A DNA stretch of 64,000 nucleotides, taken from contig JAISKH010000053.1 in the NCBI GenBank assembly GCA_031261325.1, positions 29,539 to 93,538 of the forward strand. Direction: 5' to 3'. The DNA comes from Oscillospiraceae bacterium (GTDB lineage Bacteria > Bacillota > Clostridia > Oscillospirales > Oscillospiraceae). Position numbers and translations under genes: made by a program. The notes below the pieces were generated by a model that searched no databases, was not told the origin of the DNA, and saw only the letters and a list, made by a program, of their open reading frames with translations. Shown in pieces: positions 1 through 64,000 of the stretch (its first letter is position 1; each line of letters opens with the position of its first letter).

Positions 1-5
1 ACGCG

Positions 6-1538
6 GTGCATGTGCAAAAGTTCCTGCAGCACCTGTCGGCAATTGTCCTGCTTGACGCGTCCGCACGCAAGTGTGGTTCTGTGGTAGCCACATTTACATA
101 CCCCGCGTCGCTTTCCAGCGTGGACGATTACAAGAATACCGCAAGTAACAGCTTCATCGCGGCGGAGTCGCTGTATATTGACGACGCCGTGACTACCAGA
201 GCACAGGTTAATCGGCAACCGAATTACATGACGGAGAGCGAGGCGGCGGCGCGGTTTTTCAAAAACCTCTACGGCGGCATAAACCGCATGTGCGTCATTG
301 ACATCGGCGGCGGCAGCTCGGACTTGTTCTATTGGGAGCTTGCGAACGCGCCCGCGGACGGGTTGCCGTATTATCGCGCGATAGACAGCTCGCTGAAGCT
401 CGGCGCGCAGGATATTGTTGTCGGCGCTCTTTATCGCAACGCTAAAAACATAATTAACAGTAATAAAAATCATAAGGATACGCAGATTTACAGATTGCTT
501 AGCGAAGCGAAGCTACTTAGAGACGACGGGATAGCCAACCCCGACGCGATTATAACAGGCGACCAGGTACGGAAGATTGTAGACCAAGCAAGGAAAGTGT
601 CACGGAACGACTTTAACGCGGACTGGGAAAGCCAACTGCTCCGCAAAACCCAAAACGGCGACACAGTAGGAAACCAACTGTTGAAGACAATAACCGGTCC
701 GACGTTTGTTATTGGAAAATCGGACGCCATGATGCTCACGGCTATAGCGTTTAACATCGCCGCGATTATGTACGCGGCGGGAATGTTGATGCGCAACGGT
801 AAAGGCGCGGCAAAAGCGCAGCTCGACGTCCAATTCTCCGGTAACGGTTCCAATATGGTTAAGTGGCTCGGCAGCAGTATGGCAATAACGGCATTTGTGC
901 GCGAAATACTTGTGAGGTCGAGCGGCACGGCTTTGAGCGGAAATATTAACGTTGGGTTTTCACCCAAGCTCAAGCATGAGGCGGCGGAGGGAATGCTGTG
1001 CGGTCCGATACAGTTCGGTGGCGCAGTCTTGAACCCCGTGCAGTTTACGGCGGCGGGAGAAAGCTATGTCGGACCGAAAGCAAGGGATATTGACGAGCAT
1101 GAATTGTGGTACAAGACCGTTATCGTACCCGGACATACGCTGGTTGTGCAGCAATCACTTGATAATTACCCCGCGTCGGCGACAAACTCATCAATGTCAG
1201 CCTTTGACAGGAGCACGCTGTTTGCGCTGGGAGACGTACAAACAGGCATTTCACCTAACACAATCGGGAGAACGGAGTTCGACGGGTTGCTGAACGCGTA
1301 TAATGCGGCGGTCATGAACCTGAACGCAACCAAGAATACAGCTAACCGAATAGTGTTAACGAACGCCGTAGCCAATCCGCTCGCCGGAGAGGTAAGATTA
1401 AGCGAGACGAAATGGGAAAGCAATCGAACGGCACTCATTTCAAACGCGCTTCAAAGTCCCAACGATAACCCGGGGTCGAAATCATTTTTCCTGTTAGAAG
1501 TGGAAGCTCTGCGCGAACTGCTGTACGCAGAACTATAG
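6..1538 (+). CDS. Actin-fold (ASKHA superfamily) ATPase; 5' end lies outside the window. Divergent, MreB/ParM/FtsA-like.
   Basis: Open from the window edge, so the N-terminal ~100-150 aa with the phosphate-1 motif are not visible. Contains 'MCVIDIGGGSSDLFYWE', which matches the phosphate-2 motif of actin-like ATPases (compare DnaK '[10 protein letters not shown]' in this same window; MreB/FtsA 'DIGGGTTD'). Strong SD (AAGGGGGA) and the ATG of the next gene follow 12 nt after its stop, indicating operon linkage. No other family signature recognised. Confidence 0.5.
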   Translation: MHVQKFLQHLSAIVLLDASARKCGSVVATFTYPASLSSVDDYKNTASNSFIAAESLYIDDAVTTRAQVNRQPNYMTESEAAARFFKNLYGGINRMCVIDIGGGSSDLFYWELANAPADGLPYYRAIDSSLKLGAQDIVVGALYRNAKNIINSNKNHKDTQIYRLLSEAKLLRDDGIANPDAIITGDQVRKIVDQARKVSRNDFNADWESQLLRKTQNGDTVGNQLLKTITGPTFVIGKSDAMMLTAIAFNIAAIMYAAGMLMRNGKGAAKAQLDVQFSGNGSNMVKWLGSSMAITAFVREILVRSSGTALSGNINVGFSPKLKHEAAEGMLCGPIQFGGAVLNPVQFTAAGESYVGPKARDIDEHELWYKTVIVPGHTLVVQQSLDNYPASATNSSMSAFDRSTLFALGDVQTGISPNTIGRTEFDGLLNAYNAAVMNLNATKNTANRIVLTNAVANPLAGEVRLSETKWESNRTALISNALQSPNDNPGSKSFFLLEVEALRELLYAEL

Positions 1539-1550
1539 GGTAAGGGGGAT

Positions 1551-3068
1551 ATGATGCATACATTCAAAAAGATGAAGCTGCTGCGCACCCTGACGGTTGC
1601 CGTGCTGCTTTGCATGGCGCTCGTGCTTGCGCTGCCCGGCGAGTTCTACGCAAACGCGGCATTGTCCGACGAAGCGAAAGCGGCGGAGCTGGAGAGCATA
1701 ATCGAGACAGACATTAGGGACTATATGCTGACGCTCGACACGGCGAAATTTACAAGCAACAAATTATCACTTGATAACGGCGAAAACAAATATACGATTA
1801 TGCGAAATGTAAAGGCTGATTTCAAGATGTATACGACTGAAGCGTCTTTTGAGAAAGGCAAAGAAAAACCGGAAGAGCCATGTGATGAGATAGTAGTTGT
1901 TTTGCCATGGACAAATGACAATGGTGTGTTCACAACTGATGACGGCTCGTATTTTGTGCGTGTTTATTCGTATTCTGTAAACATATTCTATGAAGATGAC
2001 CTGAAAACGCTGAAAAATACAGCGGTTCTGCTTCAAGATGGAAAACTGGAATATGATGGCACCATAAATAAAGAGTTTGTCGAATATGTAAAATCTGGCG
2101 ATGTGATTAGTTTGTGGGAACAAGTATTGCATGACCTTGCAGCCGACGCGGTTGTACCGCAGGAACCATCTGCTGTTGCGCAACCGTCGGAAACGCCTAC
2201 TCCTTCTGAGGCAGTTAAAACGGAAACAAACGCTCCCCCTGCGGACAACACCGCGAGCAATACCCCCGCTCCAAAGAGCGTCGCAATCAAAGGCGGGCAG
2301 TTTGTCGTTCTCATAATTCTCATAGTGCTTACAATAGCCTGCGGTGTCTTTGTTTTAGTGCAGATTGACAAAGTGTATAAGCACGTATCCACCACCAGTA
2401 AAAAAGTACTGGAAGCGATAGACAGGCTCGAGAAGAAAATAGATAAAGAGATTGAGGAGAACGAGATACACGTAATATCGGAAAATTTAGAGGAAATACT
2501 GAACAATCAGTCCAAGGGCGGCAAATCGACGCAGACAAAAGCAAGTAATGATTCATATTATACCGACTGGTATCCCGAAGAACGCAGTAAATCAGAGTTC
2601 GACTATAAAGCGTATTATGACGATTCCGCAAAACAAACACCCATCACCCCGCAATACAAAGACCCGCTGGCTGATTTACCGTTTCTGCTCGACGAATTGT
2701 CGGCGGTCACAGAGAACAACGGCGCGGGTTGGACGGAACGACCGGCGGTCGGGAAGCTCGAAAACAAGTACACAATCGGCAGGGACAGCACAGGAGTCGG
2801 CTATTCTGTTTCAAACACCGAAGTGTCGGAAAAGTCGTACATCGTCGGGTTCTCGCTCGGAAACAAACAGTATGCCATTCCAACGCTGAAAAGCGGCGAA
2901 TTGACTTCGCAACCGTGGCTGAAGGAATGGTTCGACATTCGAGGAGACATCAGAACGAAGCTAGGATTTACCATCATAAACCCTGCGGAGGTTGAGGGAA
3001 GCGCCGGTCAGGTGAACGGCACGGTCAGGTGCGCCAAAAAGGGCACAATAGAGGCGAAGAAATCTTGA
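1551..3068 (+). CDS. Secreted/bitopic membrane protein: signal peptide, ~190-aa extracellular domain, Pro/Thr/Ser-rich linker, one TM helix, cytoplasmic coiled coil and a conserved ~100-aa C-terminal domain
   Basis: N-terminus 'MKLLRTLTVAVLLCMALVLALPGEFYANA' is a signal peptide. Low-complexity 'PSETPTPSEAVKTETNAPPADNTASNTPAPKS' precedes the hydrophobic stretch 'FVVLIILIVLTIACGVFVLV'. The charged heptad-like stretch 'KKVLEAIDRLEKKIDKEIEENEI' follows. The C-terminal ~100 aa are paralogous to the C-terminus of the next gene. No family recognised. Confidence 0.55.
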   Translation: MMHTFKKMKLLRTLTVAVLLCMALVLALPGEFYANAALSDEAKAAELESIIETDIRDYMLTLDTAKFTSNKLSLDNGENKYTIMRNVKADFKMYTTEASFEKGKEKPEEPCDEIVVVLPWTNDNGVFTTDDGSYFVRVYSYSVNIFYEDDLKTLKNTAVLLQDGKLEYDGTINKEFVEYVKSGDVISLWEQVLHDLAADAVVPQEPSAVAQPSETPTPSEAVKTETNAPPADNTASNTPAPKSVAIKGGQFVVLIILIVLTIACGVFVLVQIDKVYKHVSTTSKKVLEAIDRLEKKIDKEIEENEIHVISENLEEILNNQSKGGKSTQTKASNDSYYTDWYPEERSKSEFDYKAYYDDSAKQTPITPQYKDPLADLPFLLDELSAVTENNGAGWTERPAVGKLENKYTIGRDSTGVGYSVSNTEVSEKSYIVGFSLGNKQYAIPTLKSGELTSQPWLKEWFDIRGDIRTKLGFTIINPAEVEGSAGQVNGTVRCAKKGTIEAKKS

Positions 3069-3076
3069 CAAACGAA

Positions 3077-4429
3077 ATGATTGTGATATTAAGCTGTGCA
3101 TCGCCGATAGTCCTGTTTGCGGTGTTTGCGATTGTTGTCTATCACAAGCTGCGGAAGCTGAAGCAAGCGGCGGTTGCGGCGGAGCTGAATATTGATTCAA
3201 ACACGCCGTTTGAGGTCGCCGAAGCGGAAGCGCACACAGCGACGATAAGCAACCTGCACAGCGCGTCGGACAACGCCTCGGACGCGTATGGCGCGATTGT
3301 CGCGCTTCAAATCGCGCTGGTGTCCATTAAGAAGTACTTACTGGACGCGTCAGGCGGTCTGTCGGAGAGCGTGAACGCGTTTGAGCGCGGCACCGATAAG
3401 CTCACCGTTCTTTCCCAAACGACGGGAGACGCGATAAAAAGCTTCTCGTCGGACGTCGCCGCGGCAATTGCGAACGGCGTTTCGGAGAGCGTCGGCACCG
3501 CAAACGAAAACGAGCAAGCTCTGCGCGAGAAATATTCTGACGCGGTAAACGGTTACATCGCCGCGTCGCAGAGCATGTTGACGGGGTTCGACCGCACGTC
3601 GGGCGGGTTCCGCACGGAGCACGACGTGTTCATTCAAACGTCGCAAGCGTTGCATAAGTCGATTAACGCTTCGGCGCAGTCGGCAAACGAACTGAAAAAC
3701 ATCGCGGTTGCGCTGAACTCGGACGGCGTGAAGTACCTCGACAAGTTGCAAACCACAACGGATAATCTTGAGAATAAGCGGCGAGAGTACGAAGCGCAGT
3801 TTGCCGCGCGCACAAATCCCGACATTGAGGGCGCGTTCAGGAAGCTTGAGGACGAGAAACGCCGCGCGAAGTCGCCCGAAGCGAACGCCATGGCACCGCG
3901 GCAATCGACCGACGAATTTTGGAAACGACTTGTGCGGGCAGTTCAAAACGGAGCGGAAAAAGCCGCGCAGACGGACGTGACCGCGTTGCTCCGCGACTTG
4001 TCCGAGAGCACCAAGCTTAACGGCGTAGGTCTGACGAACTCGGAAACTGTCAAGAATCTCGAAAACAAGTTTGAAATCGGCAAAACCGCAAGCGGAACGG
4101 GCTATACGATTGCAAATACTGAAGTGTTGTACGAATCGTATCTCGTCGGCTTCAGTCTCGGGGGCAAAATTTACGCCATACCGACGCTGAAAGGCAGCGC
4201 CTTAAGCTCGCAGAAGTGGCTGTCGGACTGGTTCGACATCAGCGGGGCAATCGACCCGCTGCGCGGCTTCACGATTAAGAAGCTGGCGGAGGTTAACATC
4301 TCGGAATCGGGCGCGGTCAAGTGCACCGCGAAAGGCGTGATTCAAGCGAATTGGGCGCAACCCGCGAATCAAAGCAATCCAAATCAAACAGTAAAGGGGA
4401 GAGCAAAGGGTGACGTTAGGAAAAAGTGA
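3077..4429 (+). CDS. Bitopic membrane protein: N-terminal TM anchor, long alpha-helical region, and a C-terminal ~100-aa domain paralogous to that of the upstream gene
   Basis: ATG at 3077 is in frame with the 3029 ORF and gives 'MIVILSCASPIVLFAVFAIVVYHKLRKLK' (TM followed by basic residues, so the C-terminus is predicted inside). The middle is Ala/Ser/Gln-rich and helical. The C-terminus 'LENKFEIGKTASGTGYTIANTEVLYESYLVGFSLGGKIYAIPTLKGSALSSQKWLSDWFDISG' aligns with 'LENKYTIGRDSTGVGYSVSNTEVSEKSYIVGFSLGNKQYAIPTLKSGELTSQPWLKEWFDIRG' of the 1551 gene. Confidence 0.55.
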   Translation: MIVILSCASPIVLFAVFAIVVYHKLRKLKQAAVAAELNIDSNTPFEVAEAEAHTATISNLHSASDNASDAYGAIVALQIALVSIKKYLLDASGGLSESVNAFERGTDKLTVLSQTTGDAIKSFSSDVAAAIANGVSESVGTANENEQALREKYSDAVNGYIAASQSMLTGFDRTSGGFRTEHDVFIQTSQALHKSINASAQSANELKNIAVALNSDGVKYLDKLQTTTDNLENKRREYEAQFAARTNPDIEGAFRKLEDEKRRAKSPEANAMAPRQSTDEFWKRLVRAVQNGAEKAAQTDVTALLRDLSESTKLNGVGLTNSETVKNLENKFEIGKTASGTGYTIANTEVLYESYLVGFSLGGKIYAIPTLKGSALSSQKWLSDWFDISGAIDPLRGFTIKKLAEVNISESGAVKCTAKGVIQANWAQPANQSNPNQTVKGRAKGDVRKK

Positions 4430-5399
4430 CATCGGGTACCTGCATTTCATCGCGCTTGCTGTGCTGTACATAGTGTCATTCGCGGTCACGGTGCTGTACG
4501 GCGTTCTGTGGTTCGCCCCTGCGGCGACATTTGCGGCGGCTTTCGCGCTGTTTGTCGCGGTTCAGATTCGCACCGCGCTCGGCACCGCGACGCTTGCCGA
4601 AATCAGAACCTTCACGCTCGCGGTCGGCGAAATATCAATACTCGGCGTTGTGTCATGGCTCGTGCTTCCGCTGATTGCGCGAACGCTGACGCAGACGGTG
4701 CAAATTGTCGCGGTTGCCGAATTTGTCCTCGGCGCGGGAATGCTGTGCGTGCTGTACGCGAGCTTTAACGCGTACCAAAAGCGTATGCAGACCGATAAGG
4801 CGGTGACGGAGAACACAGGCAGACTCGGGCTGCTCACGCTTGACGTCGCGAACGTCCTGCAAGACATTCAACTGGACGCGAGTGAGAACGAGCTGATTGT
4901 CACGAACTGCGTTGATAACATCGAACGAGCAATCGACAACATGGACGGATACCTGACGTGGCAGGAAGTTGTGTCCGGCGAAATGCGTCAAATATTTGAC
5001 AGCACATTAAAAAGCATATACAAAAACGCGGCGAAAGAGTTTGAAAAGCTCTCGGAATCGGGGCTTGCCATTATTGATTCTTACGCGCGCGATATAACCG
5101 AAAAAATGACCGAGAACGCGCGACTTTCCGAATCGGCCGCGGAAAGGTTCCTGCAAGAAGTCGCAAAATACAAGGCGTTTAGCGCCGACTCCGCAAAGGC
5201 GGCGGACAGCCTGAATTACGCGACCGAAAACCTGACGAAAATGCTCACTCCGCACGTCAAGCTGTTTCAACAGGCGGACGCGCTTATCGCGCGCGCTTCA
5301 AATGAATTTCAGATATTCACGTCGCAATGCGCGCACTCGTTTAATGACGAGATGAAAAAGCAGATGGAAATAGCTCTGGCGCAAATCAAAAAAGTGTAG
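4410..5399 (+). CDS. Polytopic (~4 TM) membrane protein with a ~200-aa cytoplasmic alpha-helical domain
   Basis: GTG start preceded by AAGGGGAG. It overlaps the stop of the previous gene by 20 nt. The N-terminal 120 aa hold about four hydrophobic helices (e.g. 'YLHFIALAVLYIVSFAVTVLYGVLWFAPAATFAAAFALFVAV'). The remainder is charged and helical ('EFEKLSESGLAIIDSYARDITEKMTENARLSE'). No family recognised. Confidence 0.5.
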   Translation: MTLGKSDIGYLHFIALAVLYIVSFAVTVLYGVLWFAPAATFAAAFALFVAVQIRTALGTATLAEIRTFTLAVGEISILGVVSWLVLPLIARTLTQTVQIVAVAEFVLGAGMLCVLYASFNAYQKRMQTDKAVTENTGRLGLLTLDVANVLQDIQLDASENELIVTNCVDNIERAIDNMDGYLTWQEVVSGEMRQIFDSTLKSIYKNAAKEFEKLSESGLAIIDSYARDITEKMTENARLSESAAERFLQEVAKYKAFSADSAKAADSLNYATENLTKMLTPHVKLFQQADALIARASNEFQIFTSQCAHSFNDEMKKQMEIALAQIKKV

Positions 5400-5404
5400 T
5401 TATT

Positions 5405-6790
5405 ATGAAAAAAGCTGTACTTACAATAGCAATTATTTTGTCGGCGGTTATCGCGCTTTTCGGTTGCGGCTCACCCCGCAATAAGAGCGTGCCAATCGAC
5501 GCGTATTTGCTGCGCGAATTGTCCAATCTTGCGACGACAATCGACGTTTCGGACTACAACATCTCGGCGGAAGAGTTCGACAAGGTGATAAACGACTTTC
5601 TCGAGAACAACACAGACATTTTCTATATCGGAAACGCGTATGAATATACGCAAATTGACGACGCGGTAGACGTCGTAACACTACAATATACTGACACGCC
5701 CGAGAACATAAAGGTGCGCTATCGCCAGATTCGCGAGGGAATTGAGCTTTCGGTGTACGAGCTGCTGTACAGCGAGTTGTCCGCGTATGCCGACGAAATT
5801 GACCTGTCGGCATACAAGATACCCCCGTCCGACATGGAACTGCTGTTTAAGGGCTTCCTAAGCGTTCACACGAAGCTGTATTACGTTGACAGCGAGCTTG
5901 AATTTGTATATTCAAACGGCATTGTCGGCGTAATATACCCGCATTACATCAGCGACAAGGTACCGCCGCCGCAACCGACGGACAGCCCGACTCCGCCGCC
6001 AAGCGAGCAGCCGCAGTCAAGCGAAGCCCCGCCGCCGACGCAGAAGCCGCCCGCACCTGAAACGCTCACGCTTGAGGAATTGCTTGTCCGCGAGATTGAG
6101 AGCTACGCCAAGTCGATTGACATTTCGTCGTATGCGATATACGAAAGCGAATTGAGCGATGTTTACTTCGGCTTTATGGACGAGCACCCTGAATTGTTTT
6201 ACGCGCAGGGGCGCGTCAGCTATTCCGAGGATTCGTCGGGCAAAATTACAATCGTCTACCCGTTCTACAGCGCGGAGCCTGACGTTATAACCGTGCAGCG
6301 GCGGGAGTTCGAGGCGGCGGTGGACGCGGCAGTCGCCGCGATACCCGTCGGCTTAACCGACGCGGAAAAGGTCGTTGCCGTCAGCGACTACTTATGCGTG
6401 AACGCGACGTATGACCTCACATATGAGCACAGGTTCGCTTACGACATACTCGTTCTCGGAATCGGCGTTTGCAACGGGTATGCCGACGCGTATAACGTGA
6501 TACTGTCGCGTCTCGGCATCGAGAGCTTCAAGCTGATAAGTATAGGCATGAACCACGCGTGGACTATGGTCAAAATCAACGGCGAATGGTACCATTGCGA
6601 CGCGACATGGAACGACCCAACGCCCGATGTCGGCAACGTATACCACAGTTACATTCTCCTGCCCGACGACGTAATGTCCGACAACAGGCATAACCACTAC
6701 GGCTGGGTGGAAACCGCCCCACCGGCCGACGACTATACATATGTTGATGCATACTGGATAACGGAAAGCAGCCCCATAAACTTCGGTTGA
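5405..6790 (+). CDS. Lipoprotein with two internally repeated N-terminal domains, a Pro-rich linker and a C-terminal transglutaminase-like (papain-fold Cys-His-Asp) domain
   Basis: The signal peptide carries a lipobox, 'ALFGC'. Two similar segments are present ('DVSDYNISAEEFDKVINDFLENNTDIFYIGNAYEY' and 'DISSYAIYESELSDVYFGFMDEHPELFYAQGRVSY'). The linker is 'PPPQPTDSPTPPPSEQPQSSEAPPPTQKPPAPE'. The C-terminal 'GIGVCNGYADAY ... NHAWTMVKINGEWYHCDATWND' matches the transglutaminase-like core (G-x-C-x-x-Y-A, H-A-W, D-x-T). The start lies 5 nt after the previous stop. Confidence 0.6.
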   Translation: MKKAVLTIAIILSAVIALFGCGSPRNKSVPIDAYLLRELSNLATTIDVSDYNISAEEFDKVINDFLENNTDIFYIGNAYEYTQIDDAVDVVTLQYTDTPENIKVRYRQIREGIELSVYELLYSELSAYADEIDLSAYKIPPSDMELLFKGFLSVHTKLYYVDSELEFVYSNGIVGVIYPHYISDKVPPPQPTDSPTPPPSEQPQSSEAPPPTQKPPAPETLTLEELLVREIESYAKSIDISSYAIYESELSDVYFGFMDEHPELFYAQGRVSYSEDSSGKITIVYPFYSAEPDVITVQRREFEAAVDAAVAAIPVGLTDAEKVVAVSDYLCVNATYDLTYEHRFAYDILVLGIGVCNGYADAYNVILSRLGIESFKLISIGMNHAWTMVKINGEWYHCDATWNDPTPDVGNVYHSYILLPDDVMSDNRHNHYGWVETAPPADDYTYVDAYWITESSPINFG

Positions 6791-6814
6791 GATTTGTAAC
6801 CGCAGGTTACAAAC

Positions 6815-6858
6815 GAGCGGGAGACTTCAGGCAATATGCTTGAAGTCTCCCGTTTTCG
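6815..6858 (+). terminator. Rho-independent terminator closing the five-gene operon
   Basis: GGGAGACTTCA-ggcaatatgc-TTGAAGTCTCCC forms an 11-bp GC-rich stem. It is followed by GTTTTCG and lies immediately after the stop at 6790. Confidence 0.7.
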
Positions 6859-7037
6859 TTAATAAAGTTACAATTCATACGTTAAAGTGTATATATAATC
6901 ATGTTGAAAATTACGCCAATATGTGATAAACTACAATCAGCACAATAGCTTGTGCCGTAGAGTATATCAGTTCTTGCCGAATAAAGTCATACCGCGTAAA
7001 AACGGCATGAACGGCGGATTGTGATGGGTAGAAAATT

Positions 7038-8501
7038 ATGTTACTTAAAAAAAGAACCGTAATCCTCATTGCGGTTATTGTCTTAGTGGTTGACGCCGCG
7101 CTCGCCCTTGGCGGATTTTACATAGCTCGCATAGACGAAACAGCGGTTTACGCGTTGCCGATTGCGGCGATATTGGCGGCGGCAGTCACGCTGCTGCCGA
7201 TTCTTTCGCTTCTGCGACTGCTGAAAAACGGCGCGGACAACATCGACAAGTTTCTAAAGCTCGCGTCGGCGGGTCATCTTGAAAAACGCTTTGAGGAAAA
7301 CAGCGCGGAAGCCTTCCCGGAAATCGCGACAAATCTGAATATCATGATGGCAAATCTGGAGAAAATGAGCCACGCCAAGAGCGATTTTCTCTCCAGCATG
7401 AGTCATGAAATTCGCACGCCCATGAGCGCGATTATAGGCATGGCGCAAATCGCGCGCAACGCCACGGATAAGGCGAGAATCGACGACTGTCTGCAAAAAA
7501 TCGAGGACAACTCCAAGCACCTGATTGGCGTTATCAACGACATTCTCGACTTCTCAAAGGTCGAATCCGGCAAGCTCCAGCTTGACGAGCAGCTCTTCTC
7601 GCTGAGGGAAAATCTGGCGTTTGTCGAATCCATGTTCCAAGGCAAGATGGAGGAAAAGCACCTCGACTTCAGCCTTGTCGTCAAGGACATCAAGAACGAC
7701 GGCATAGTCACGGATTCGCTGCGCCTTAACCAAGTGCTGATAAACCTGCTGTCCAACGCCGTGAAGTTCACGAACGCGGGCGGTAAAGTCACCCTCACGG
7801 CGGAGGAGCTTATGCACATGGGCAACGACAGCGTTTACGCTTTCGCCGTCACCGACACGGGCATAGGCATTGAACCCGAGCAGGCGAAAAAGCTGTTCAC
7901 GCCGTTCGTACAGGCGAGCGCGGGTACGGCGAAGCTATACGGCGGAACGGGGCTTGGGCTTGTGATTTCCAAGAACATCGTCGAAAAAATGGGCGGCGAC
8001 ATTGAGCTTGACAGCGTGCCCGGAGAGGGGAGCACGTTCAGCTTCACAATCCGCGTCGTCTCACAGGAAGCCGCCGAGCCCGCCGCGCAGGAGGAAGAGG
8101 AGCAAGGCGCGCCCGACTTCCACGGCAAGCGGCTCCTTATAGTGGACGACATTGAGATTAACCGCGAGATTGCGGTTGAGATACTGCGCGAAACCTGCGT
8201 CGAAATGGAATGCGCGGAGAACGGCAAGGTCGCGCTCGACATGTTCCTGAACGCGCCAGAGGGCTATTACGACATGATTCTCATGGATATGCAAATGCCT
8301 GTAATGGACGGCTGCGAGTCAACCGAAATGATACGCAAGAGCGGCAAGCGCGACGCGGCGACAATCAAAATCGTCGCCGTGACGGCGAACGTCATGCGTG
8401 ACGACGTGGCGCGCGCCTATGCCGCAGGTATGAACGGACACATCGGCAAGCCCATCGACTTCGGTGAAGCTTACAAGATAATGGCGACAATGCTGAAATA
8501 G
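7038..8501 (+). CDS. Hybrid sensor histidine kinase with a C-terminal receiver domain
   Basis: Two N-terminal TM segments. H-box 'SHEIRTPMSAIIGMAQI'. N-box 'LLSNAVKFT'. G-boxes 'DTGIGI' and 'GGTGLGLVISKNIVEKMGG'. The receiver shows 'LLIVDDIEINREIA ... ILMDMQMPVMDG ... KIVAVTA'. Confidence 0.85.
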   Translation: MLLKKRTVILIAVIVLVVDAALALGGFYIARIDETAVYALPIAAILAAAVTLLPILSLLRLLKNGADNIDKFLKLASAGHLEKRFEENSAEAFPEIATNLNIMMANLEKMSHAKSDFLSSMSHEIRTPMSAIIGMAQIARNATDKARIDDCLQKIEDNSKHLIGVINDILDFSKVESGKLQLDEQLFSLRENLAFVESMFQGKMEEKHLDFSLVVKDIKNDGIVTDSLRLNQVLINLLSNAVKFTNAGGKVTLTAEELMHMGNDSVYAFAVTDTGIGIEPEQAKKLFTPFVQASAGTAKLYGGTGLGLVISKNIVEKMGGDIELDSVPGEGSTFSFTIRVVSQEAAEPAAQEEEEQGAPDFHGKRLLIVDDIEINREIAVEILRETCVEMECAENGKVALDMFLNAPEGYYDMILMDMQMPVMDGCESTEMIRKSGKRDAATIKIVAVTANVMRDDVARAYAAGMNGHIGKPIDFGEAYKIMATMLK

Positions 8502-8648
8502 GCGATATACTGTAAAACAACCATAAGGTCAAGGACGCAACGCGGCGTAATTTCTCCAATGAGTTCCGGCGCAAATTGTTCACAACCCGCGTCGGCGGTT
8601 ATTTATACGCGAAACGGCAAGTAAAAAAAGTTGGGGTGTGTTGTAGTT

Positions 8649-9734
8649 TTGAAGAAGCTTTGGGATAAACGAGTTTATATGGTGATTGCCGTGAGTATAA
8701 TCCTGTTCCTGACCGTGAGTATCCTGTCATTCGTCTCCATAAAGCAGCTGCAAGGCAACGCGCGCGTCGTCAATTACGACGGCATAGTGCGCGGCGCGAC
8801 GCAGAAGCTGATGAAAATGGAGCTACAAAGCGCGTACTCGGGCGGCGTTGACGTCGGAGCGCGCGACGCGCTGCGGGAGCGGCTTGACGCGATTCTCCAC
8901 GCGCTTGACACGGGCGAGGGCTTGACGGAGGAAACCCAAAACATCATTGCGCTGCAAGATGAAACGCACAGCGGAATGATTAAGGCGCTCCTTGAAAAAT
9001 GGGCGGCGCTAAAAGACGAGATTCAGCGCGTGCGCGGCGGCGCGAACCCCGAAACGCTCTACACAATGAGCGAGGAATACTTCAAGCTCGCAAATGACAC
9101 GGTTTTCGCGGCGGAGGACTTCTCGGAAAGTCAGGTTGACAACACGACGACGATTCTGCTCGGCGTAAACGCGGTGTTTATCCTGTTCATCTTGGTCGCC
9201 GTAATCTTCATCGTCCGCAGCATGGCGGTCAGGCGGCGCGCGGACATGCTCGGCAAAATAGCGTACATCGACCCGCTGACTCAGCTCGAAAACCGCGCGA
9301 GCTGCGAGCGGCTGATTGCGCGCTACAAGGCAAGCCCGCCGCAGGGCAGCGTCGCCGTATTGATGTTCGACATGAACAACCTCAAGCTGGCGAACGACTT
9401 CCTCGGTCATCAGGGCGGCGACCAGATTATCTTCAATTTCGCAAAAATAATCGGCAACGAAGCGAAAGACTTCGGTTTCGTCGGGCGTTACGGCGGCGAC
9501 GAGTTCCTCGCCGTACTGGAGCGCGCGGACGAATCGCGGGCGGAGGAATACCTGCAACGCGTGAACAGTCAGATTGCGGCTTACAACTCCCTGCGCGTGA
9601 ACGACATTGAGAAAATCAGCTTCGCCGCGGGAATCGCGTCGGGCACGTTGGCGGATAATGAAATCGACGACTTGATTTACGCGGCGGACAGAAACATGTA
9701 CGCCAACAAACGCGAGATGAAAAAGTCGCTCTAA
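8649..9734 (+). CDS. Membrane-anchored diguanylate cyclase (GGDEF domain) with a periplasmic/extracytoplasmic sensor region
   Basis: 'GGDEF' is present in 'RYGGDEFLAVLERAD'. An upstream 'DPLTQLENR' stretch is also present. There are two TM segments. The start is uncertain: TTG at 8649 after GGGGTG, while the ORF track opens at 8631. Confidence 0.8.
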   Translation: MKKLWDKRVYMVIAVSIILFLTVSILSFVSIKQLQGNARVVNYDGIVRGATQKLMKMELQSAYSGGVDVGARDALRERLDAILHALDTGEGLTEETQNIIALQDETHSGMIKALLEKWAALKDEIQRVRGGANPETLYTMSEEYFKLANDTVFAAEDFSESQVDNTTTILLGVNAVFILFILVAVIFIVRSMAVRRRADMLGKIAYIDPLTQLENRASCERLIARYKASPPQGSVAVLMFDMNNLKLANDFLGHQGGDQIIFNFAKIIGNEAKDFGFVGRYGGDEFLAVLERADESRAEEYLQRVNSQIAAYNSLRVNDIEKISFAAGIASGTLADNEIDDLIYAADRNMYANKREMKKSL

Positions 9735-48800: not shown

Positions 48801-49030
48801 GAAACCTCCGCCAGCACGCGCGTGCAAAGCCGCGTAAAGCTCAAAGCCTCGCCGTGCAGCGACAGCGAATCGCCGACGACGCGGCAAAGCTGCCGCTCGC
48901 AAGCGTGCGAATACTGCTCCGGCACGAGCATGATAAGCCCCGTCTCGCCGTCCGCCGCCCGCCGCCGCATGTCCTCCATAACAAGCGCCGTCTTACCGCT
49001 CCCCGAACGTCCCAAAATAAAAGTAATCAA
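45788..49030 (-). CDS. addB: ATP-dependent helicase/nuclease subunit B (AddB/RexB)
   Basis: TTG start 6 nt after GGGGAGG gives 'MITFILGRSGSGKT' (degenerate Walker A typical of AddB). The C-terminal 'CRYCEYKSAC' Fe-S cysteines are present. The ORF-track start at 49063 is probably leader. Confidence 0.85.
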   Translation of the reverse strand: MITFILGRSGSGKTALVMEDMRRRAADGETGLIMLVPEQYSHACERQLCRVVGDSLSLHGEALSFTRLCTRVLAEVSGAVNVLDGGGQILALYRALAVAEPALKLYGGERRADFLERLLATVKELKACRATPETLSRAAEDAGGALGDKLRELALILEGYDAFLRGAAAIDPRDRLTLAADKIAISSFAERRYYIDGFNEFTAQETRVIEELIASGAELTFCLTCGERFGDEEIFAAPRKALEELIRLAEKYGAEWSLRELSIGDARRAGDLAFLERRLFAHGGEVYGGAAASVETLAAATTFTECEIAAAKVLELVRAGYRYRDIAITARGVDAYASLCENVFERYGIPVFVSGNADILQKPPVALIVAALEIVTRGWSYDAVFRYLKTGLAGIAAEECDELENYVIRYNIRGGTWTRAGDWAFGLKRDAETEVDRKREQVKLAEAARVDALRRRIAAPLVRLQNGLKRAATCADGLGVLYEFLEGLELPRAISAKAELLGGLGNARLADEYRQLWKIIVSAIDQCHALMGDASLSIAEFARVLPLVLSQYSVGVIPVALDRVMVGDMASGRRLDVKCLIVLGATDGALPHASEPGGVLSDEERTRLGSLGVAVSGGMETRLANELNIIYSALTQPSDKLILLYPKSAKPSYLFTRALKLLRLTERVPEPREYMTAAELPCYELAAMSADSEARAFFEQFGGARLRELEVAAAMERGSLSADAAFRLYGAGRAYSATRVKAFYSCKFGYFMKNGLRAYERKAVTFDAPEEGTFMHFVLQKTAEYARDSGGFGAVEPDALTALTDTFTEEYIAKNMPDWDERPERFRYLFLRLAGEARTVVADTARELRASDFAPTEFEKDFQSEPRFDESIGEIPVLHGLIDRIDEWDDGGKRYLRVVDYKTGSEAFELTKVLNGLGAQMLIYLFALTRGRSDVVPSGVLYSRACAEIFTAKHDMSDVEIDKELASKLKRSGLLLDDDAVVEAMERGVKRFMPSNRATAEQFEQLSRHLDGLLAAVPKGLLSGDVSADPYYRANDDHACRYCEYKSACLFDEERDNRRRIYNVSNSEFWEKVGGGNGKD

Positions 49031-49063
49031 TAAATCCTCCCCATTTCCAATTGCGATTCGCAA

Positions 49064-50002
49064 TTAGTAAATAATATGACCAGAATATGGTTGTGGCTTA
49101 CCGCAGCTTTTACATTCCGCGAGACTGCTTATCGTCGTTGCGCCGCAATAAACGCAGCGACCACGCAGCCCCGTGCAGCCCACAAAAGCTTTAGACGCAA
49201 TATAGGTAACGCTGTTCGGAATTTTAATATTTGTAAGCACCTTGCAATCGCAAAAAGCCTCCTCCTCGATGCGAGTCACGCTTTTTGGAATTGTGATGCT
49301 AGTAAGCCCTGTGCAACCATAAAAAGCCCCCTCCACAATACTAGTAACGCCGTTCTCAATTGTGATACGGGTAAGCCCTGTGCAATCCGAAAAAGCACTC
49401 TTGCCAATACTTGTAACGCTGTCCGGAATAGTGATTTCGGTAAGCCCTGTGCAGCCAGCAAAAGCCTGCTTCCCAATAATGTTAACGCTGCCCGGAATGG
49501 TGATGCTGGTAAGCCCCGAGCAACTTTGAAAAGCCATTTCTCCAATACTGGTAACACCATCCGGAATTGTGATACCGGTAAGCCCTGTGCAACTATGAAA
49601 AGCAGCATACTCAATACCGGTAACGCCATTCGGAATGGTGATATTGGTAAGACCTGTACAGCCGGAAAAAGCATTCCTCTCAATACCGACAACGCCGTCC
49701 GGGATTGTGACGCTGCGTATATTTTTCATGCCATTAAACACACCCTTGCCTATCGTTAACACACCATCGGGAATCACAACATCAATATCCGCGCCAACGT
49801 ACTCTTTCAGCACCCCCGCAACAATCACAAAATCCGCCGCCTTTGCAGCCCCTTGCGCTTTAGGCGCAACGCCCGTTGCCGCAAGCATACTTTTCAATGC
49901 GCGCAAAGGGTACTCCACCCCGCAGACCTCACAGGTCGCGAACCGCCTGCCGCCGTCCATTACCAGCTTCCCCCCGCAAATGTCACAAACCAATCCCGCC
50001 AT
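49064..50002 (-). CDS. BspA-type leucine-rich-repeat protein flanked by N- and C-terminal zinc-ribbon motifs; no signal peptide
   Basis: 'CDICGG ... CEVCG' at the N-terminus and 'CVYCG ... CKSCG' at the C-terminus. About nine ~23-aa repeats ('ITIPDGVTSIGEMAFQSCSGLTS') in between. Confidence 0.7.
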   Translation of the reverse strand: MAGLVCDICGGKLVMDGGRRFATCEVCGVEYPLRALKSMLAATGVAPKAQGAAKAADFVIVAGVLKEYVGADIDVVIPDGVLTIGKGVFNGMKNIRSVTIPDGVVGIERNAFSGCTGLTNITIPNGVTGIEYAAFHSCTGLTGITIPDGVTSIGEMAFQSCSGLTSITIPGSVNIIGKQAFAGCTGLTEITIPDSVTSIGKSAFSDCTGLTRITIENGVTSIVEGAFYGCTGLTSITIPKSVTRIEEEAFCDCKVLTNIKIPNSVTYIASKAFVGCTGLRGRCVYCGATTISSLAECKSCGKPQPYSGHIIY

Positions 50003-60973: not shown

Positions 60974-62236
60974 ATGAAAACAGCAAAACGTATTCTCACA
61001 TGGGCACTCGCGGTCGCGCTTGTGCTCTCGCTCACAGGCGTGTTCGCCCTCGCGGTGGAGGACGACGAGCCTGTCAAAGAAACGCGCGACGACGTTACGG
61101 CAATAACCGTCTCTGTCCGCATTGAGGGTCAAACGGAAAACCTGTTCTACAACACGGCGGTCAGGCTCGTTCCCGTCGGTGAGGAACCGCTCACCGTGCT
61201 CGACCTCGCGACGATTCTCAACGAGTCCGAAACCGCGCCCGACTTCACGTTCAAGGACAGCGGCTACGGTCCCTACATCACCGCAATCGGCGACCTCGAA
61301 GAGGGCACGAACGCCGAGTGGGACGGCTGGCAGTTCCGCGTGAACGGAATTTCGCCCGTCGTAGGCATAAGCGCGTATGAGCTTGCCGACGGCGACAGCG
61401 TGGTGTTCTATTACTCCGACGAATTTGGCATGGGCTTTGCCTTCCCCGAAATCGACCTCACCAACATTTATAACGGCAACATCAGCTTCACAACAACCGT
61501 GACGACCTACGACGACGAGGGCACGCCCTCAACCGCTGTCGTACCCGTCGCGGACGCGGTCGTGACGATAGGCGACGATACGCGCACGACCGACGAGAAC
61601 GGCACAATCGCTCTCAACGTATTCGGCGGCTTCCGTACCCTGCAAATCGAGAAAACCGACGCGGAAACAGGTATCCCGCTCGTTCTCCGCCTTGCGCCCG
61701 ATTACGAAATCTTCGTTCCGTTCACCGACACGGAGGAGGGCGCGTGGTATGACGAAGCGATTCAGTACAACGTCAAATCCGGTCTGTTCAAGGGCAATCA
61801 GGACGGCACCTTTAACCCCGACGGAAACATGACGCTCGCGGAGCTTACGCAGGTGCTCTACCGCGTCGCGGACGGAGTTGACGTCGTGGGCGCCGAGTTC
61901 TGGTACACAGGCGCGCTCAACTGGGCGGTCGAATCGGGGCTGTTCCCCGAGGAAAGCTTCAAGCCCGACGTAGTTGTCCAGCGTCAGCAGTTCATATTCT
62001 TGTTCAACAAGACGATTGAAATCGTCGGCGAACGCGATATTGAAGCGCGCGCCGACCTGACCGAAGCGACGGACTACGACGACATCAGCGGCAGCTATCT
62101 CGAAGCCGTAGAGTGGGCAGTCGCCAGCGGCCTCATCAACGGCACAAGCGAGGAAACCCTAACCATCAACCCCAAAGGCACAATCACCCGCGCGGAAGTC
62201 TGCAAAATGCTGCAAAACTATTATACCGCAGTATAA
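60974..62236 (+). CDS. Secreted cell-wall protein with C-terminal SLH (S-layer homology) repeats
   Basis: GGAGG SD + ATG. Signal peptide 'MKTAKRILTWALAVALVLSLTGVFALA'. The C-terminal repeats 'FTDTEEGAWYDEAIQYNVKSGLFKGNQDGTFNPDGNMTLAELTQVLYRV' and 'YDDISGSYLEAVEWAVASGLINGTSEETLTINPKGTITRAEVCKMLQNY' match the SLH pattern. Confidence 0.7.
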   Translation: MKTAKRILTWALAVALVLSLTGVFALAVEDDEPVKETRDDVTAITVSVRIEGQTENLFYNTAVRLVPVGEEPLTVLDLATILNESETAPDFTFKDSGYGPYITAIGDLEEGTNAEWDGWQFRVNGISPVVGISAYELADGDSVVFYYSDEFGMGFAFPEIDLTNIYNGNISFTTTVTTYDDEGTPSTAVVPVADAVVTIGDDTRTTDENGTIALNVFGGFRTLQIEKTDAETGIPLVLRLAPDYEIFVPFTDTEEGAWYDEAIQYNVKSGLFKGNQDGTFNPDGNMTLAELTQVLYRVADGVDVVGAEFWYTGALNWAVESGLFPEESFKPDVVVQRQQFIFLFNKTIEIVGERDIEARADLTEATDYDDISGSYLEAVEWAVASGLINGTSEETLTINPKGTITRAEVCKMLQNYYTAV

Positions 62237-62299
62237 TCACCTTATTCCCGCGTCCCGCCGCGCGGCACTCTGCGTCTCTCGTCCTGCGTCGCGTCTTTC

Positions 62300-62327
62300 C
62301 GTTCCATATCTGTTATCAGTTATCTGT
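62300..62327. repeat. Tandem heptad repeat (CTGTTAT x4) in the intergenic region after the SLH gene
   Basis: CTGTTAT CAGTTAT CTGTTAA CTGTTAC. Confidence 0.5.
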
Positions 62328-62350
62328 TAACTGTTACCTATCCTTGCGCT

Positions 62351-62714
62351 CCCCGCGCGGGGCCCCCTTTCTTATGCGAGAAAGGGGGGAAAGCGCACTA
62401 AAGAGGGGCTGCCGCCCCTCTTTAGAATTACCCTGCTTCTCAAAGCACTATAGTCTCCAGTCGCTATCGCAAATGAAAGGTTCTACAGCGCGGAACAGGT
62501 TCAAATATAAGCGCAAGCTCGCTCCGCGAAGCTGACAATGTTGCAACGCAGTTAATCTTGCCAAGTGGCAGCTTGCAACACCAGTTCACACCTTTAGTCC
62601 GTAACGCTGCAATTGGTTTGCGCCTAGCTGTGGGGGTGATTTTTAAGAGGGGGTTTACCCCCTCTTAAATGCGCTTCCCCCCCTTTCTCGCATAAGAAAG
62701 GGGGTCCCCGCCGG
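62351..62714. repeat. ~70-bp highly structured inverted repeats flanking a ~215-bp core (MITE-like element or structured ncRNA)
   Basis: Left arm 62351-62425: CCCCGCGCGGGG, hairpin CCCCCTTTCT-tatgcg-AGAAAGGGGGG, hairpin AAAGAGGGGC-tgcc-GCCCCTCTTT. Right arm 62642-62714 is its near-perfect reverse complement: TTAAGAGGGGG-ttta-CCCCCTCTTAA, CCCCCCCTTTCT-cgcata-AGAAAGGGGG, CCCCGCCGG. Confidence 0.5.
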
Positions 62715-62758
62715 ACAGGCGAAGCAAATCTTCTTTGAGAATTAAAAAACAATCAAAT

Positions 62759-63010
62759 TCATAAACGAGCGGCTTCCCAATATGCCCATTCATAACGGAT
62801 ACGGTACACTTTGAGTTTGGGGTTTGGTTTCAGAAAATCAATGCTAATATTTTCTTTGACACAAGGATTTCGTTCACATATAAACACCGCACCAAATGAA
62901 GGCGCGGTAATGCGATTTATATGTTCAGGTGGAATCCTTTTTACATATCCAACAATTATGTCCTTTTTTGTTGTTGTTAAAAAGTAAATTTTTGTATGCG
63001 TTAAGCGCAA
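62759..63010 (-). CDS. Hypothetical small ORF in the AT-rich island (possible gene fragment)
   Basis: ORF only. Low GC relative to the rest of the window. No motif recognised. Confidence 0.25.
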   Translation of the reverse strand: MRLTHTKIYFLTTTKKDIIVGYVKRIPPEHINRITAPSFGAVFICERNPCVKENISIDFLKPNPKLKVYRIRYEWAYWEAARL

Positions 63011-63114
63011 ACATTTTGTTTAGTTCTTTTATCTGACTTCCGAATCTAATTGATATGACCTTGTGCCGTGTCGCTTTATAAGCAATAATATCATAGAGAC
63101 ACAAACAAATACTC

Positions 63115-63790: not shown

Positions 63791-64000
63791 CATCACCTAA
63801 AGAGCGTGATTTATTCCGAGAATGCTATTCCACAGCATTTCTCTTCCGGAATAATTCCAATATCTGATATCTTGCTCAATGAAGAGCCACTTCAACACAG
63901 CGAGTATTAAGTCGCACGGAAAGCCGCTTTTGAAATTAATATTATCCAAAGGCGCATCTTTAAGTTCCAATTCACAAGTAAAAATGCCGCGCATAAACTG

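Follow-up and report, generated by a model that had tools for sequence, protein, structure and literature searches.

Positions 1-6866 of the 64,000-nucleotide stretch of Oscillospiraceae DNA analysed here (the window) are the distal half of a longer gene cassette of uncultured gut anaerobes. In its relatives, this cassette joins a giant ATPase of the ASKHA (actin/Hsp70/sugar-kinase) fold to a divergent tubulin-like GTPase and a set of membrane and surface proteins. For the present genome, the upstream genes A, B and the tubulin-like C are predicted from the relatives only. We tentatively favour a reading of the cassette as a membrane-anchored two-NTPase envelope machine, a variant of the FtsZl1 operons for which a role in membrane remodelling has been predicted.

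Operon layout and composition

The five genes in the window are co-directional on the forward strand and tightly packed, as a preliminary description of this DNA had stated. Gene 1 (1-1538, read from position 6, with the frame open from base 3) is cut at its 5' end by the window edge and is followed after a 12-nt gap by the open reading frame of gene 2 (1551-3068, with 1554 as the start in the Logan gene call). Gene 3 (3065-4429, in a reading frame open from 3029) starts either with TTG at 3065, as in the Logan call of 454 aa, or with ATG at 3077, and accordingly overlaps gene 2 by 4 nt or lies 8 nt behind it. The open reading frame of gene 4 (4410-5399) overlaps gene 3 by 20 nt, and that of gene 5 (5405-6790) begins after a further gap of 5 nt. 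GGAGG-like ribosome-binding sequences precede genes 2, 3 (for the TTG start) and 4. The earlier assignment of one Shine-Dalgarno sequence to each gene thus holds for these three but not for gene 5, where the upstream sequence atcaaaaaagtgtagttattATG contains no obvious ribosome-binding site. The operon ends in an intrinsic terminator (6812-6866, forward strand), a long G+C-rich hairpin with a U-rich tail. Its hairpin at 6812-6860 has a folding energy of -35 kcal/mol (z = -8.7 against shuffled sequences) and is followed by UUUUCGUU, in agreement with the single strong terminator proposed before. A simple terminator scan made no call at this hairpin.

The region is AT-richer than its surroundings, as had been noted, with a GC content of 52.1% in 1-6858 versus 58.1% in the remaining window, a modest dip that extends to about 11 kb. 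GC3 values range from 0.54 to 0.70 in the operon genes versus 0.75-0.78 in PolC, AddAB, UvrB, PBP2 and MreC. The locus is surrounded by core genes, namely mreC, PBP2, uvrB, addAB and polC.

Gene 1 encodes part of a giant ASKHA ATPase

An exhaustive HMMER search identified the full-length product of gene 1 as P0001 (locus tag LBN30_04975), a protein of 1,224 aa that is 100% identical over residues 715-1224. The window hence holds the C-terminal 510-512 residues, the last 42% of the protein, comprising the second half of the ASKHA ATPase domain and a C-terminal extension of about 170 aa. An ATPase of actin size is not what this gene encodes. Beside P0001, the search found 64 further cluster representatives, mostly of 1,050-1,430 aa, and with 65 representatives among 1.84 billion the family is rare. 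All 20 entries looked up either had no name or were called 'hypothetical', and their clusters had one to three members. The architecture of the family consists of an N-terminal region of about 590 aa with an unrecognised fold, the ASKHA ATPase domain and the C-terminal extension.

The giant protein has the ASKHA fold with an intact set of nucleotide-binding motifs. In P0001, two RNase-H-like subdomains form the nucleotide cleft, as is characteristic of ASKHA proteins, and the fold, for which the preliminary description had asked for a structure prediction, was confirmed (AF2 model with pLDDT 79.7 and pTM 0.87). The phosphate-1 motif DFGTSST (P0001 597-603) lies outside the window. Within it, the 'connect' motif TESEAAA (P0001 790-796; 231-251, forward strand) was located from invariant columns and by hhalign to the DnaK nucleotide-binding domain (NBD), which gave 89.9% probability over a stretch covering this motif. 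TESEAAA is the counterpart of NEPTAAA in Hsp70, and its E791 is invariant across the giant family. The phosphate-2 motif VIDIGGGSSD, already recognised in the preliminary description, occupies gene-1 residues 97-106 (P0001 811-820; 294-323, forward strand) with D813, G815, G816 and D820 invariant. It is followed by the adenosine-pocket-like motif FSGNGS (P0001 991-996; 834-851, forward strand), in which G993 and G995 are invariant. Over 40-50 family members, DFGTSST, IDIGGG(T/S)SD and FAGNGS (FSGNGS in P0001) are invariant or nearly so, in keeping with the ASKHA patterns DxGxxxT for phosphate-1, DxGGGxxD for phosphate-2 and GxG for adenosine.

At family level, the protein stands apart from the known members of this fold. 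P0001 and seven relatives matched no Pfam family at E<=0.01 except for a sub-threshold Ppx-GppA match. Among 40 family members, all Pfam matches were below threshold (Ppx-GppA in 17, MreB_Mbl in 5, SrfB in 3, Alp7A_C, FtsA and HSP70 in 2 each). Searched against PDB sequences, the family profile had only MreB, FtsA, actin-like proteins and Hsp70 as top matches. The earlier placement of gene 1 outside the MreB, FtsA, ParM and DnaK families is supported, since MreB, FtsA, ParM and HSP70 all remained sub-threshold in Pfam. As the ASKHA domain scores equally against Hsp70-type chaperones and filament formers, the label 'cytoskeletal' is not established for it.

Gene order in relatives

The cassette was compared in ten independent loci with upstream DNA (L002, L004, L005, L007, L008, L009, L011, L012, L017 and L019) from Firmicutes MAGs, Bacteroidales MAGs and unassigned metagenome contigs. 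What had been described as an operon of five genes is part of a longer unit in these relatives, in which the giant gene is the fourth and the genes before it correspond to DNA beyond the window edge. In all ten loci, the genes run in the order A-B-C-D up to the giant gene, in the same orientation and with short gaps. Gene A encodes a signal-peptide protein or lipoprotein of about 460-680 aa, which in L004 carries an OmpA peptidoglycan-binding domain (E 2.4e-8). Gene B encodes a four-helix membrane protein of about 150-205 aa, and gene C, directly upstream of the giant gene, a divergent Tubulin_2/FtsZl1-type GTPase of about 500-560 aa. Gene D, the counterpart of gene 1, encodes the giant of 1,050-1,430 aa. 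One or two proteins with a shared C-terminal domain (CTD) follow in slot E (genes 2 and 3 here), the first usually with the architecture signal peptide, ectodomain, transmembrane helix (TM) and CTD. In slot F (gene 4 here) lies a membrane protein whose cytoplasmic part is a long helical domain, and in the last slot, taken by gene 5 here, a lineage-specific gene. Genes 2-4 recur downstream of the giant gene in the loci searched for them.

The tubulin-like nature of gene C is seen in its Pfam Tubulin_2 matches in L004 (E 3.8e-7, 30.1 bits versus a cutoff of 27) and L007 (E 7e-6, 25.9 bits), and in the tubulin signature motifs (G-box and GGGTG[ST]G-like T4 loop), represented by GVGGTGAKV and GSIFGGTGASGIP and conserved in four aligned proteins from relatives. 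A homologue search yielded 80 proteins, many with PF13809 and one named by NCBI as 'tubulin-like domain-containing protein'; none of these 80 was a Tubulin_2 match from the present MAG. In at least eight cases, gene-C homologues and giant-family proteins came from contigs of equal size.

Membrane proteins and the variable last gene

Membrane topologies of the cassette proteins were derived from hydrophobicity and charge, and TM and signal predictions were obtained for A, B, E and F. Gene 2 encodes an N-terminal signal-like helix or signal peptide, an ectodomain of about 170 aa, a P/T/S/A-rich linker (residues 203-245), a TM (252-270), a cytoplasmic stretch and the CTD (2646-3065, forward strand), in line with the signal peptide, extracellular domain and PT-rich linker described before. 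This architecture recurs in L009_12605, L007_10394, L004_11749, L005_11045 and L012_9877. Gene 3 has a single N-terminal TM anchor, an Ala/Ser/Asn-rich helical region and a CTD at about 3947-4350. Both products are thus single-pass proteins with paralogous C-termini, as had been proposed: the C-terminal 128 aa or so share 52% identity (E 1e-35). We place the CTD in the cytoplasm because it lies C-terminal to the TM and after positive charges. With a local HMM, it was found again downstream of the giant gene in L002, L004, L005, L007, L009, L011 and L012, and the copies L004_12849, L007_12230 and L011_13193 lack any TM. No CTD proteins were detectable in the Bacteroidales loci, and genes 2-4 may therefore be lineage-specific add-ons.

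The four-TM topology with a cytoplasmic helical domain predicted for gene 4 was reproduced, with four hydrophobic helices within residues 11-115 and a helical domain of about 210 aa. Its only Pfam match, to BAR_3, was sub-threshold. It shows weak homology (E 1e-4) to L007_13326, itself a match to L005_12088 (E 3e-14) and also to L002_15289 and L011_14230.

The gene 5 product, again as first described, is a lipoprotein of the cell surface that contains a Cys-His-Asp transglutaminase-like core. It consists of a lipobox (LFGC, Cys21), three repeats of about 75 aa (z 12-16), a P-rich linker and the core at about 6356-6604. The Pfam Transglut_core match (E 8e-9, 36.2 bits versus a cutoff of 23) includes Cys356 (GVCNGYA), His384 (NHAW) and Asp399 (HCDATW), and PDB entry 9crn was matched with E 2.4e-6. 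A role as the effector of the system finds no echo in the relatives: the far-end genes vary by locus, the two with Pfam matches being Lipase_3 (L002) and WG_beta_rep (L005), and neither a gene 5 counterpart nor any transglutaminase was present among them in the other loci examined.

Discussion

In the reading that we tentatively favour, the two NTPases, the tubulin-like GTPase and the giant, would act jointly at the cytoplasmic face of the membrane. Genes 2 and 3, through their CTDs, and gene 4, through its helical domain, could dock both of them there. Nucleotide-driven assembly or conformational change might then be coupled across the membrane to the gene 2 ectodomain, secreted protein A and gene 5, the latter as a putative thiol peptidase or transamidase, and the outcome would be a local remodelling of membrane or cell wall. 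The cassette could thus be a small accessory envelope machine in the style of FtsZ/FtsA plus bitopic proteins. The preliminary description had already read the operon as an envelope-spanning machine driven by an ATPase, a view that is supported in part and corrected as to the size of gene 1, the extent of the unit and the role of gene 5. Its original form, a self-contained five-gene machine with an actin-sized ATPase and gene 5 as dedicated effector, we consider very improbable. Tight spacing and the single terminator do tie the five genes together, and both the ASKHA fold and the paralogous cytoplasmic domains were confirmed; against it stand the 1,224 aa of the gene 1 product, the three further genes, including that of the tubulin-like GTPase, which precede the giant in 10 of 10 relatives, and a gene 5 without counterpart in other loci.

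The main rival to a remodelling machine is an accessory conflict system, i.e., anti-phage defence or inter-bacterial antagonism, in which the two NTPases would be a membrane sensor or switch and the variable end genes effectors. Although we regard such a system as unlikely on the whole, it fits the rarity, patchiness, mobile neighbours, lower GC and variable last gene at least as well. The giant family is spread very sparsely over Firmicutes and Bacteroidota in clusters of one to three members; transposases adjoin L007 and L011, and a resolvase and ParB adjoin L004. GC and GC3 lie below those of the flanking housekeeping genes, the last gene changes from Transglut_core here to Lipase_3 in L002 and WG_beta_rep in L005, and the giant, as a large NTPase of several domains whose N-terminal region is unrecognisable, could be a sensor. 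However, PADLOC-DB v2, queried with the window proteins, full-length P0001, the tubulin-like proteins and proteins A and B of L005, returned noise-level matches only (E >= 0.0018, over short coiled-coil or partial stretches), and there were no meaningful PHROG matches. This agrees with the earlier statement that the operon is not a known defence system. Moreover, with their signal peptides or lipoboxes the putative effectors would work extracellularly, an uncommon arrangement in abortive infection; the window locus lies amid core genes and in no recognisable defence island, and the L005 cassette directly follows the rplK-rplA operon. Less likely again, we find, is an aid to surface assembly or secretion, with the Hsp70-like giant as chaperone or motor that, jointly with the membrane proteins, delivers or anchors large surface proteins, and gene 5 as a cross-linking or processing enzyme on the cell surface. 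Extracytoplasmic partners in every locus would suit it, as would the repeats in the gene 5 surface lipoprotein, one WG_beta_rep and one SLH protein near L005, and an ORF of more than 9,902 aa directly downstream of the cassette in L012. Yet this large neighbour occurs in one locus only, no recognisable translocon part (Sec/Tat-like channel, ABC transporter, secretin or sortase) and neither an Hsp70 substrate-binding domain nor a J-protein was detected, and this reading does not account for the tubulin-like GTPase.

Turning from these rivals to known systems, the preliminary description had found no match to any described one. This stands for the families it named, and PADLOC, PHROG and NCBIfam gave no system match for the operon. 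As had been argued, the cassette is not PilMNO. PilN and PilO have their homologous domains in the periplasm, and what PilM binds is a short N-terminal peptide on the cytoplasmic side. Genes 2 and 3, in contrast, share a cytoplasmic domain at the C-terminus, and some copies of this domain occur in TM-free proteins. The loci also showed no pilin, PilB/T ATPase or PilC, and there was no Pfam match to PilM, PilN or PilO. Likewise, a MoxR-vWA-TgpA system is discounted by the lack of AAA+ or vWA matches in genes 1-4 and the downstream genes. MreB, ParM, other bacterial actins and Hsp70 NBDs differ in that the giant has no family-level Pfam or NCBIfam match and embeds its domain in 1,224 aa. SrfB (PF07520), a large proteobacterial 'virulence factor' protein that contains an ASKHA-like domain, resembles the giant in size. 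Its weak matches in 3 of 40 family members (best E 5.6e-3) were all sub-threshold, none came from P0001, and the partners SrfA and SrfC were not seen. Gene 5 shares the Cys-His-Asp core and lipobox with Transglut_core surface lipoproteins such as MAG6410, although its NCBIfam match to this family is partial, covering the core region only (56.8 bits versus a cutoff of 450), and its three N-terminal repeats match no family. Compared with the FtsZ-FtsA divisome, the giant is not FtsA by sequence (Pfam FtsA in 2 of 40 members, all sub-threshold), is three to four times larger and has an unrecognised N-terminal half. As the loci examined lie outside division and cell-wall gene clusters, the cassette looks like an accessory system and not an essential one.

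The closest described kind, not named in the preliminary description, are the FtsZl1-centred operons of Makarova and Koonin (2010, PMC2875224), predicted to encode membrane-associated remodelling complexes. In that work, FtsZl1 proteins of about 760-1,180 aa are accompanied by vWA proteins, a novel P-loop GTPase, Ser/Thr kinases and families B1-B9 and B12; as late as 2023, the FtsZl1/Tubulin_2 family had yet to be characterised (PMC9871819). Like these operons, the cassette as seen in its relatives combines a divergent tubulin-superfamily GTPase with proteins that are secreted or associated with the membrane, in some cases one with an OmpA domain, and both share a patchy spread over phyla and a predicted membrane-associated multi-protein complex. 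The cassette differs in its short tubulin-like protein (about 500-560 aa, seen in the relatives only) and in its constant partner, the giant ASKHA ATPase, which is not among the partners found listed in the PMC2875224 text and supplements. Furthermore, the window genes and the called genes of L002, L004, L005, L007, L011 and L012 had no vWA, GTPase or kinase Pfam match. A bolder and more doubtful proposal than the remodelling machine itself is that the giant ATPase and its tubulin-like GTPase partner are an obligate pair, docked to the membrane by the CTD as a new adaptor of about 130 aa, with hydrolysis coupled to extracellular events and with horizontal spread in gut anaerobes of two phyla. 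If so, the cassette would add a third kind to the dual tubulin-like/actin-like modules of bacteria, beside FtsZ/FtsA and the magnetosomal FtsZm/MamK.

Genes and signals of the window operon

The window opens with five open reading frames on the + strand: gene 1 (6–1538), which is cut by the window edge and whose frame is open from base 3, gene 2 (1551–3068), gene 3 (alternative starts at 3029, 3065 and 3077, end at 4429), gene 4 (4410–5399) and gene 5 (5405–6790). Junctions are tight, with a 12-nt gap between genes 1 and 2, a 20-nt overlap between genes 3 and 4 and a 5-nt gap between genes 4 and 5; depending on the start chosen for gene 3, genes 2 and 3 overlap by 4 nt or lie 8 nt apart. A terminator hairpin at 6812–6860 (−35 kcal mol−1, z = −8.7 compared with shuffles) is followed by a U-rich tail. 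With these features and a reduced GC content, the five-gene operon seen in the preliminary description is real. Its assignment of one Shine–Dalgarno sequence to each gene holds for genes 2, 3 and 4, which have GGAGG-like sites at their 5′ side, but not for gene 5, where no ribosome-binding site was obvious.

The GC content amounts to 52.1% across the operon region versus 58.1% elsewhere in the window, and GC3 is 0.54–0.70 in the operon genes versus 0.75–0.78 in PolC, AddAB, UvrB, PBP2 and MreC. The reported GC decrease is thus correct, although the dip is modest and reaches beyond the operon through the next three genes. Other low-GC patches lie at 49001–50000 (0.495) and 62001–64000 (about 0.48), and the remainder of the window otherwise has about 58–60% GC. 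The hybrid histidine kinase, GGDEF, TetR, PBP2, MreC, UvrB, AddAB and PolC genes flanking the operon mark a Firmicute chromosome.

Gene 1 belongs to a family of giant ASKHA proteins

The 510-residue fragment encoded by gene 1 gave no matches in Pfam, NCBIfam, PHROGs, PADLOC, PDB sequences or a word-indexed homology search. The latter also missed the full-length protein of gene 1, which is present in the collection, so that its misses do not indicate absence; the same leaky prefilter applies to the C-terminal domain (CTD) common to genes 2 and 3, for which an alignment query likewise found nothing. A first scan with gene 1 across GTDB genomes was negative, and a metagenome scan with the over-general pattern [IV]DIGGG[TS][STV]D yielded at least three distant loci. 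Exhaustive HMMER scanning of 1.84 billion representatives gave a family of 65 proteins. Its best match to gene 1 was P0001 (MDR0862108.1, ‘hypothetical protein LBN30_04975’ of an Oscillospiraceae MAG), a protein of 1,224 aa that is 100% identical to gene 1 over residues 715–1224. Relatives of this giant protein mostly have 1,050–1,430 aa, and the 20 clusters looked up contain one to three members each, unnamed or ‘hypothetical’.

The VIDIGGGSSD sequence previously noticed in gene 1 is present. In the family alignment, the P0001 motifs DFGTSST (597–603, outside the window), IDIGGG(T/S)SD (812–820) and FAGNGS (991–996) are invariant or nearly so, and hhalign aligned a TESxAAA motif of the family to NEPTAAA of DnaK. 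None of 40 giant-family members reached the Pfam threshold of an ASKHA family. These results support an actin/Hsp70-type (ASKHA) fold but not membership in MreB, FtsA, ParM, Hsp70, PilM or SrfB, in line with the initial placement of gene 1 inside this fold and apart from MreB, FtsA, ParM and Hsp70. A hydrophobic stretch of gene 1 (P0001 residues 957–975) was ruled out as a transmembrane helix, as the ASKHA model folds it into a helix predicted with high confidence. We also rejected as weak-match noise PDC-M64C on gene 1, PDC-M61B on the cluster representative P0014 and an adenylate-kinase-like PDB hit (E 0.4). The N-terminal region of the giant protein had no meaningful BFVD match; this region of 590 residues may be a new domain, as may the CTD.

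A tubulin-like GTPase gene precedes the giant gene in related loci

Ten independent related loci include DNA upstream of the giant gene (L002, L004, L005, L007, L008, L009, L011, L012, L017 and L019). L002 stems from a Defluviitaleaceae MAG, L005 from another Oscillospiraceae MAG and L017 and L019 from Porphyromonadaceae/Bacteroidales MAGs, and L008 is marine; all giant-family members come from MAGs or metagenomes. Complete sequences are available from L002 and L005. The proposed five-gene unit is probably incomplete, since in all ten loci three more genes, co-oriented and closely spaced, precede the giant gene. Gene A encodes a protein of about 460–680 aa with an N-terminal signal or lipobox and, in L004, an OmpA peptidoglycan-binding domain. 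Gene B encodes a four-helix membrane protein of about 150–205 aa. The gene C product (about 500–560 aa) is a divergent Tubulin_2 (FtsZl1) family protein, scoring 30.1 bits in L004 (cutoff 27) and 25.9 bits in L007; it contains GVGGTGAKV together with the tubulin signature GSIFGGTGASGIP. We detected 80 gene C homologs, often with PF13809, one of which is named ‘tubulin-like domain-containing protein’ by NCBI. In at least eight cases, such homologs and giant-family proteins can be paired by the length of their contigs.

In locus L013, which belongs to the very abundant short Tubulin_2 cluster P0132 (1,578 member sequences), giant-like gene remnants lie downstream. No long gene was called at the giant-gene position (5766–9220), and tblastn matched the ASKHA part of the family at 7473–9220; gene fragmentation, a frameshift or a non-standard genetic code may be the cause. 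The four-gene core also occurs in Bacteroidota, in L017 and L019 (7831–15688), with proteins of 544, 158, 557 and 1,326–1,330 aa. Their giant proteins (hmmsearch E 1e-62 to 1e-65) contain a long low-complexity insertion ahead of phosphate-2, and no CTD proteins were detected downstream of these two cores. The only other copy of the window locus, L001, is identical to window positions 1–6824 and adds 1,557 nt upstream. As this additional DNA lies entirely within gene 1, we can only infer from the relatives that genes A, B and C precede gene 1 in the window’s own genome.

Genes 2 to 4 are cassette members and gene 5 occupies a variable end position

The C-termini of genes 2 and 3 are paralogous as previously described, with 52% identity over about 128 residues (E 1e-35). 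The accompanying topologies were also recovered: a signal-like helix, a P/T-rich linker and one transmembrane helix in gene 2, one N-terminal transmembrane helix in gene 3 and four transmembrane helices in gene 4. A local HMM found the CTD, whose alignment comprises only nine to twelve sequences, in the gene or genes directly 3′ of the giant gene in L002, L004, L005, L007, L009, L011 and L012, with E-values of 1.9e-9, 3.8e-9 and 2.7e-6 for sequences outside model building. Two CTD proteins are present in four loci (window, L004, L007 and L011). The first typically follows the gene-2 layout of signal peptide, ectodomain, often P/T-rich or acidic linker, transmembrane helix and CTD, of which L009_12605 is a striking copy. 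The second often lacks any transmembrane helix, confirming a cytoplasmic location of the CTD. In one CTD protein (L007 12230–13153), the membrane anchor is replaced by an N-terminus that is rich in Cys, contains numerous CxxC-like pairs and may be a zinc-binding module. Gene 4 shows a weak but reciprocal relationship to L007_13326, which in turn matches L005_12088 (E 3e-14), L002_15289 and L011_14230, all of them TM-plus-helical proteins. Matches of DUF7198 and DUF3139 to the gene-2 transmembrane region, of FAM192A, Rootletin and FliJ to gene-3 helices, of ZorA and GajA to gene 3 and of BAR_3 to gene 4 were rejected as noise from composition, transmembrane segments or coiled coils.

Gene 5 encodes the transglutaminase-like lipoprotein described earlier, with a lipobox and a Cys356–His384–Asp399 core within an above-threshold Transglut_core match. 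Three repeats of about 75 aa precede this core (residues about 26–305, window 5480–6300; pairwise local-alignment z 11.7–15.9) and match no Pfam family. The effector role originally suggested is not a conserved one, since among the loci examined a transglutaminase ends the cassette only in the window and L001. The last gene encodes a Lipase_3 protein in L002 and a WG_beta_rep protein in L005. Directly 3′ of the P0020 cassette in L012 (11579–19803), a reading frame exceeding 9,902 residues runs off the locus and may encode a giant surface protein.

After the window terminator, a hybrid histidine kinase (HisKA, HATPase_c and receiver; 7038–8501) and a GGDEF diguanylate cyclase (8631–9734) follow in the same orientation and the same lower-GC stretch. 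A regulatory link to the operon is possible; a functional link of the cassette to this pair is unsupported, as the pairing was not seen in other loci. A separate response-regulator/kinase pair lies just upstream of the L002 cassette.

Proposed function of the cassette

Two cytoplasmic NTPases are predicted from sequence, one of the tubulin type and one of the ASKHA type with an intact motif set. The conserved parts of the membrane proteins, the CTD and the helical domains, face the cytoplasm, and protein A, the gene-2 ectodomain and the gene-5 lipoprotein are the extracytoplasmic partners. We tentatively favor a membrane-docked two-NTPase machine for envelope remodeling, in extension of the ‘membrane remodelling complex’ that FtsZl1 operons were proposed to encode (PMC2875224). 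The CTDs and the gene-4 helical domain might dock both NTPases to the membrane, and nucleotide-driven assembly or conformational change would pass across to the outside, where peptidoglycan-binding or -modifying proteins could work on the envelope.

The main rival, an accessory conflict or defense system, appears rather unlikely. The giant family is very rare and patchy, transposases or a resolvase with ParB adjoin some loci, the window locus has a lower GC content, and the last gene changes like an effector slot; however, the candidate effectors are exported, no PADLOC model matched, and core genes surround the window and L005 loci. Near-equal similarity to Hsp70 nucleotide-binding domains and the neighboring large surface proteins would fit a role in surface assembly or as a chaperone, yet we consider this improbable for a cassette that lacks a recognizable translocon.

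Among the branches of the tubulin superfamily that have no known function, Tubulin_2/FtsZl1 is, to our knowledge, the largest. The cassette provides these proteins with a constant, structurally recognizable partner, the giant ASKHA ATPase, and with a defined membrane-anchor set. The vague prediction of ‘membrane remodelling’ thereby becomes one that can be tested through pairwise interactions and phenotypes. Cooperation of both NTPases, if it occurs, would add a new case of bacterial machinery that combines tubulin-like and actin-like components. Were it a defense or antagonism system instead, it would represent a new class with cytoskeleton-type NTPases at its core.

Comparison with known systems

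PilMNO, MreBCD, FtsA, ParM, Hsp70, SrfB and MoxR-vWA-TgpA each miss at least one tested defining feature. The divisome core of FtsZ, FtsA and bitopic proteins resembles the cassette in logic, not in sequence. A full-text search, with incomplete coverage and hence no proof of absence, found no description of a cassette of tubulin-like and giant ASKHA proteins or of such a defense system. A study of 2023 still placed Tubulin_2 as an uncharacterised outgroup (PMC9871819).

Of the systems described so far, the FtsZl1/Tubulin_2-centered operon comes closest; like the cassette in the relatives, it combines a tubulin-family member with membrane and OmpA-type partners and has a patchy distribution. 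In Deinococcus, the FtsZl1 gene adjoins MotA/TolQ/ExbB-like and OmpA-family genes (DR_0535–0540; PMC2875224, Supplement 5), a pairing reminiscent of stator-type modules. In contrast to the cassette, the published operons have vWA proteins, kinases and a novel P-loop GTPase as partners of long FtsZl1 proteins, and the giant ASKHA protein, constant here, was not found among the partners listed (PMC2875224). We classify the cassette as an already known kind of predicted, uncharacterised FtsZl1/Tubulin_2 operon, of which the version paired with a giant ASKHA protein is new.
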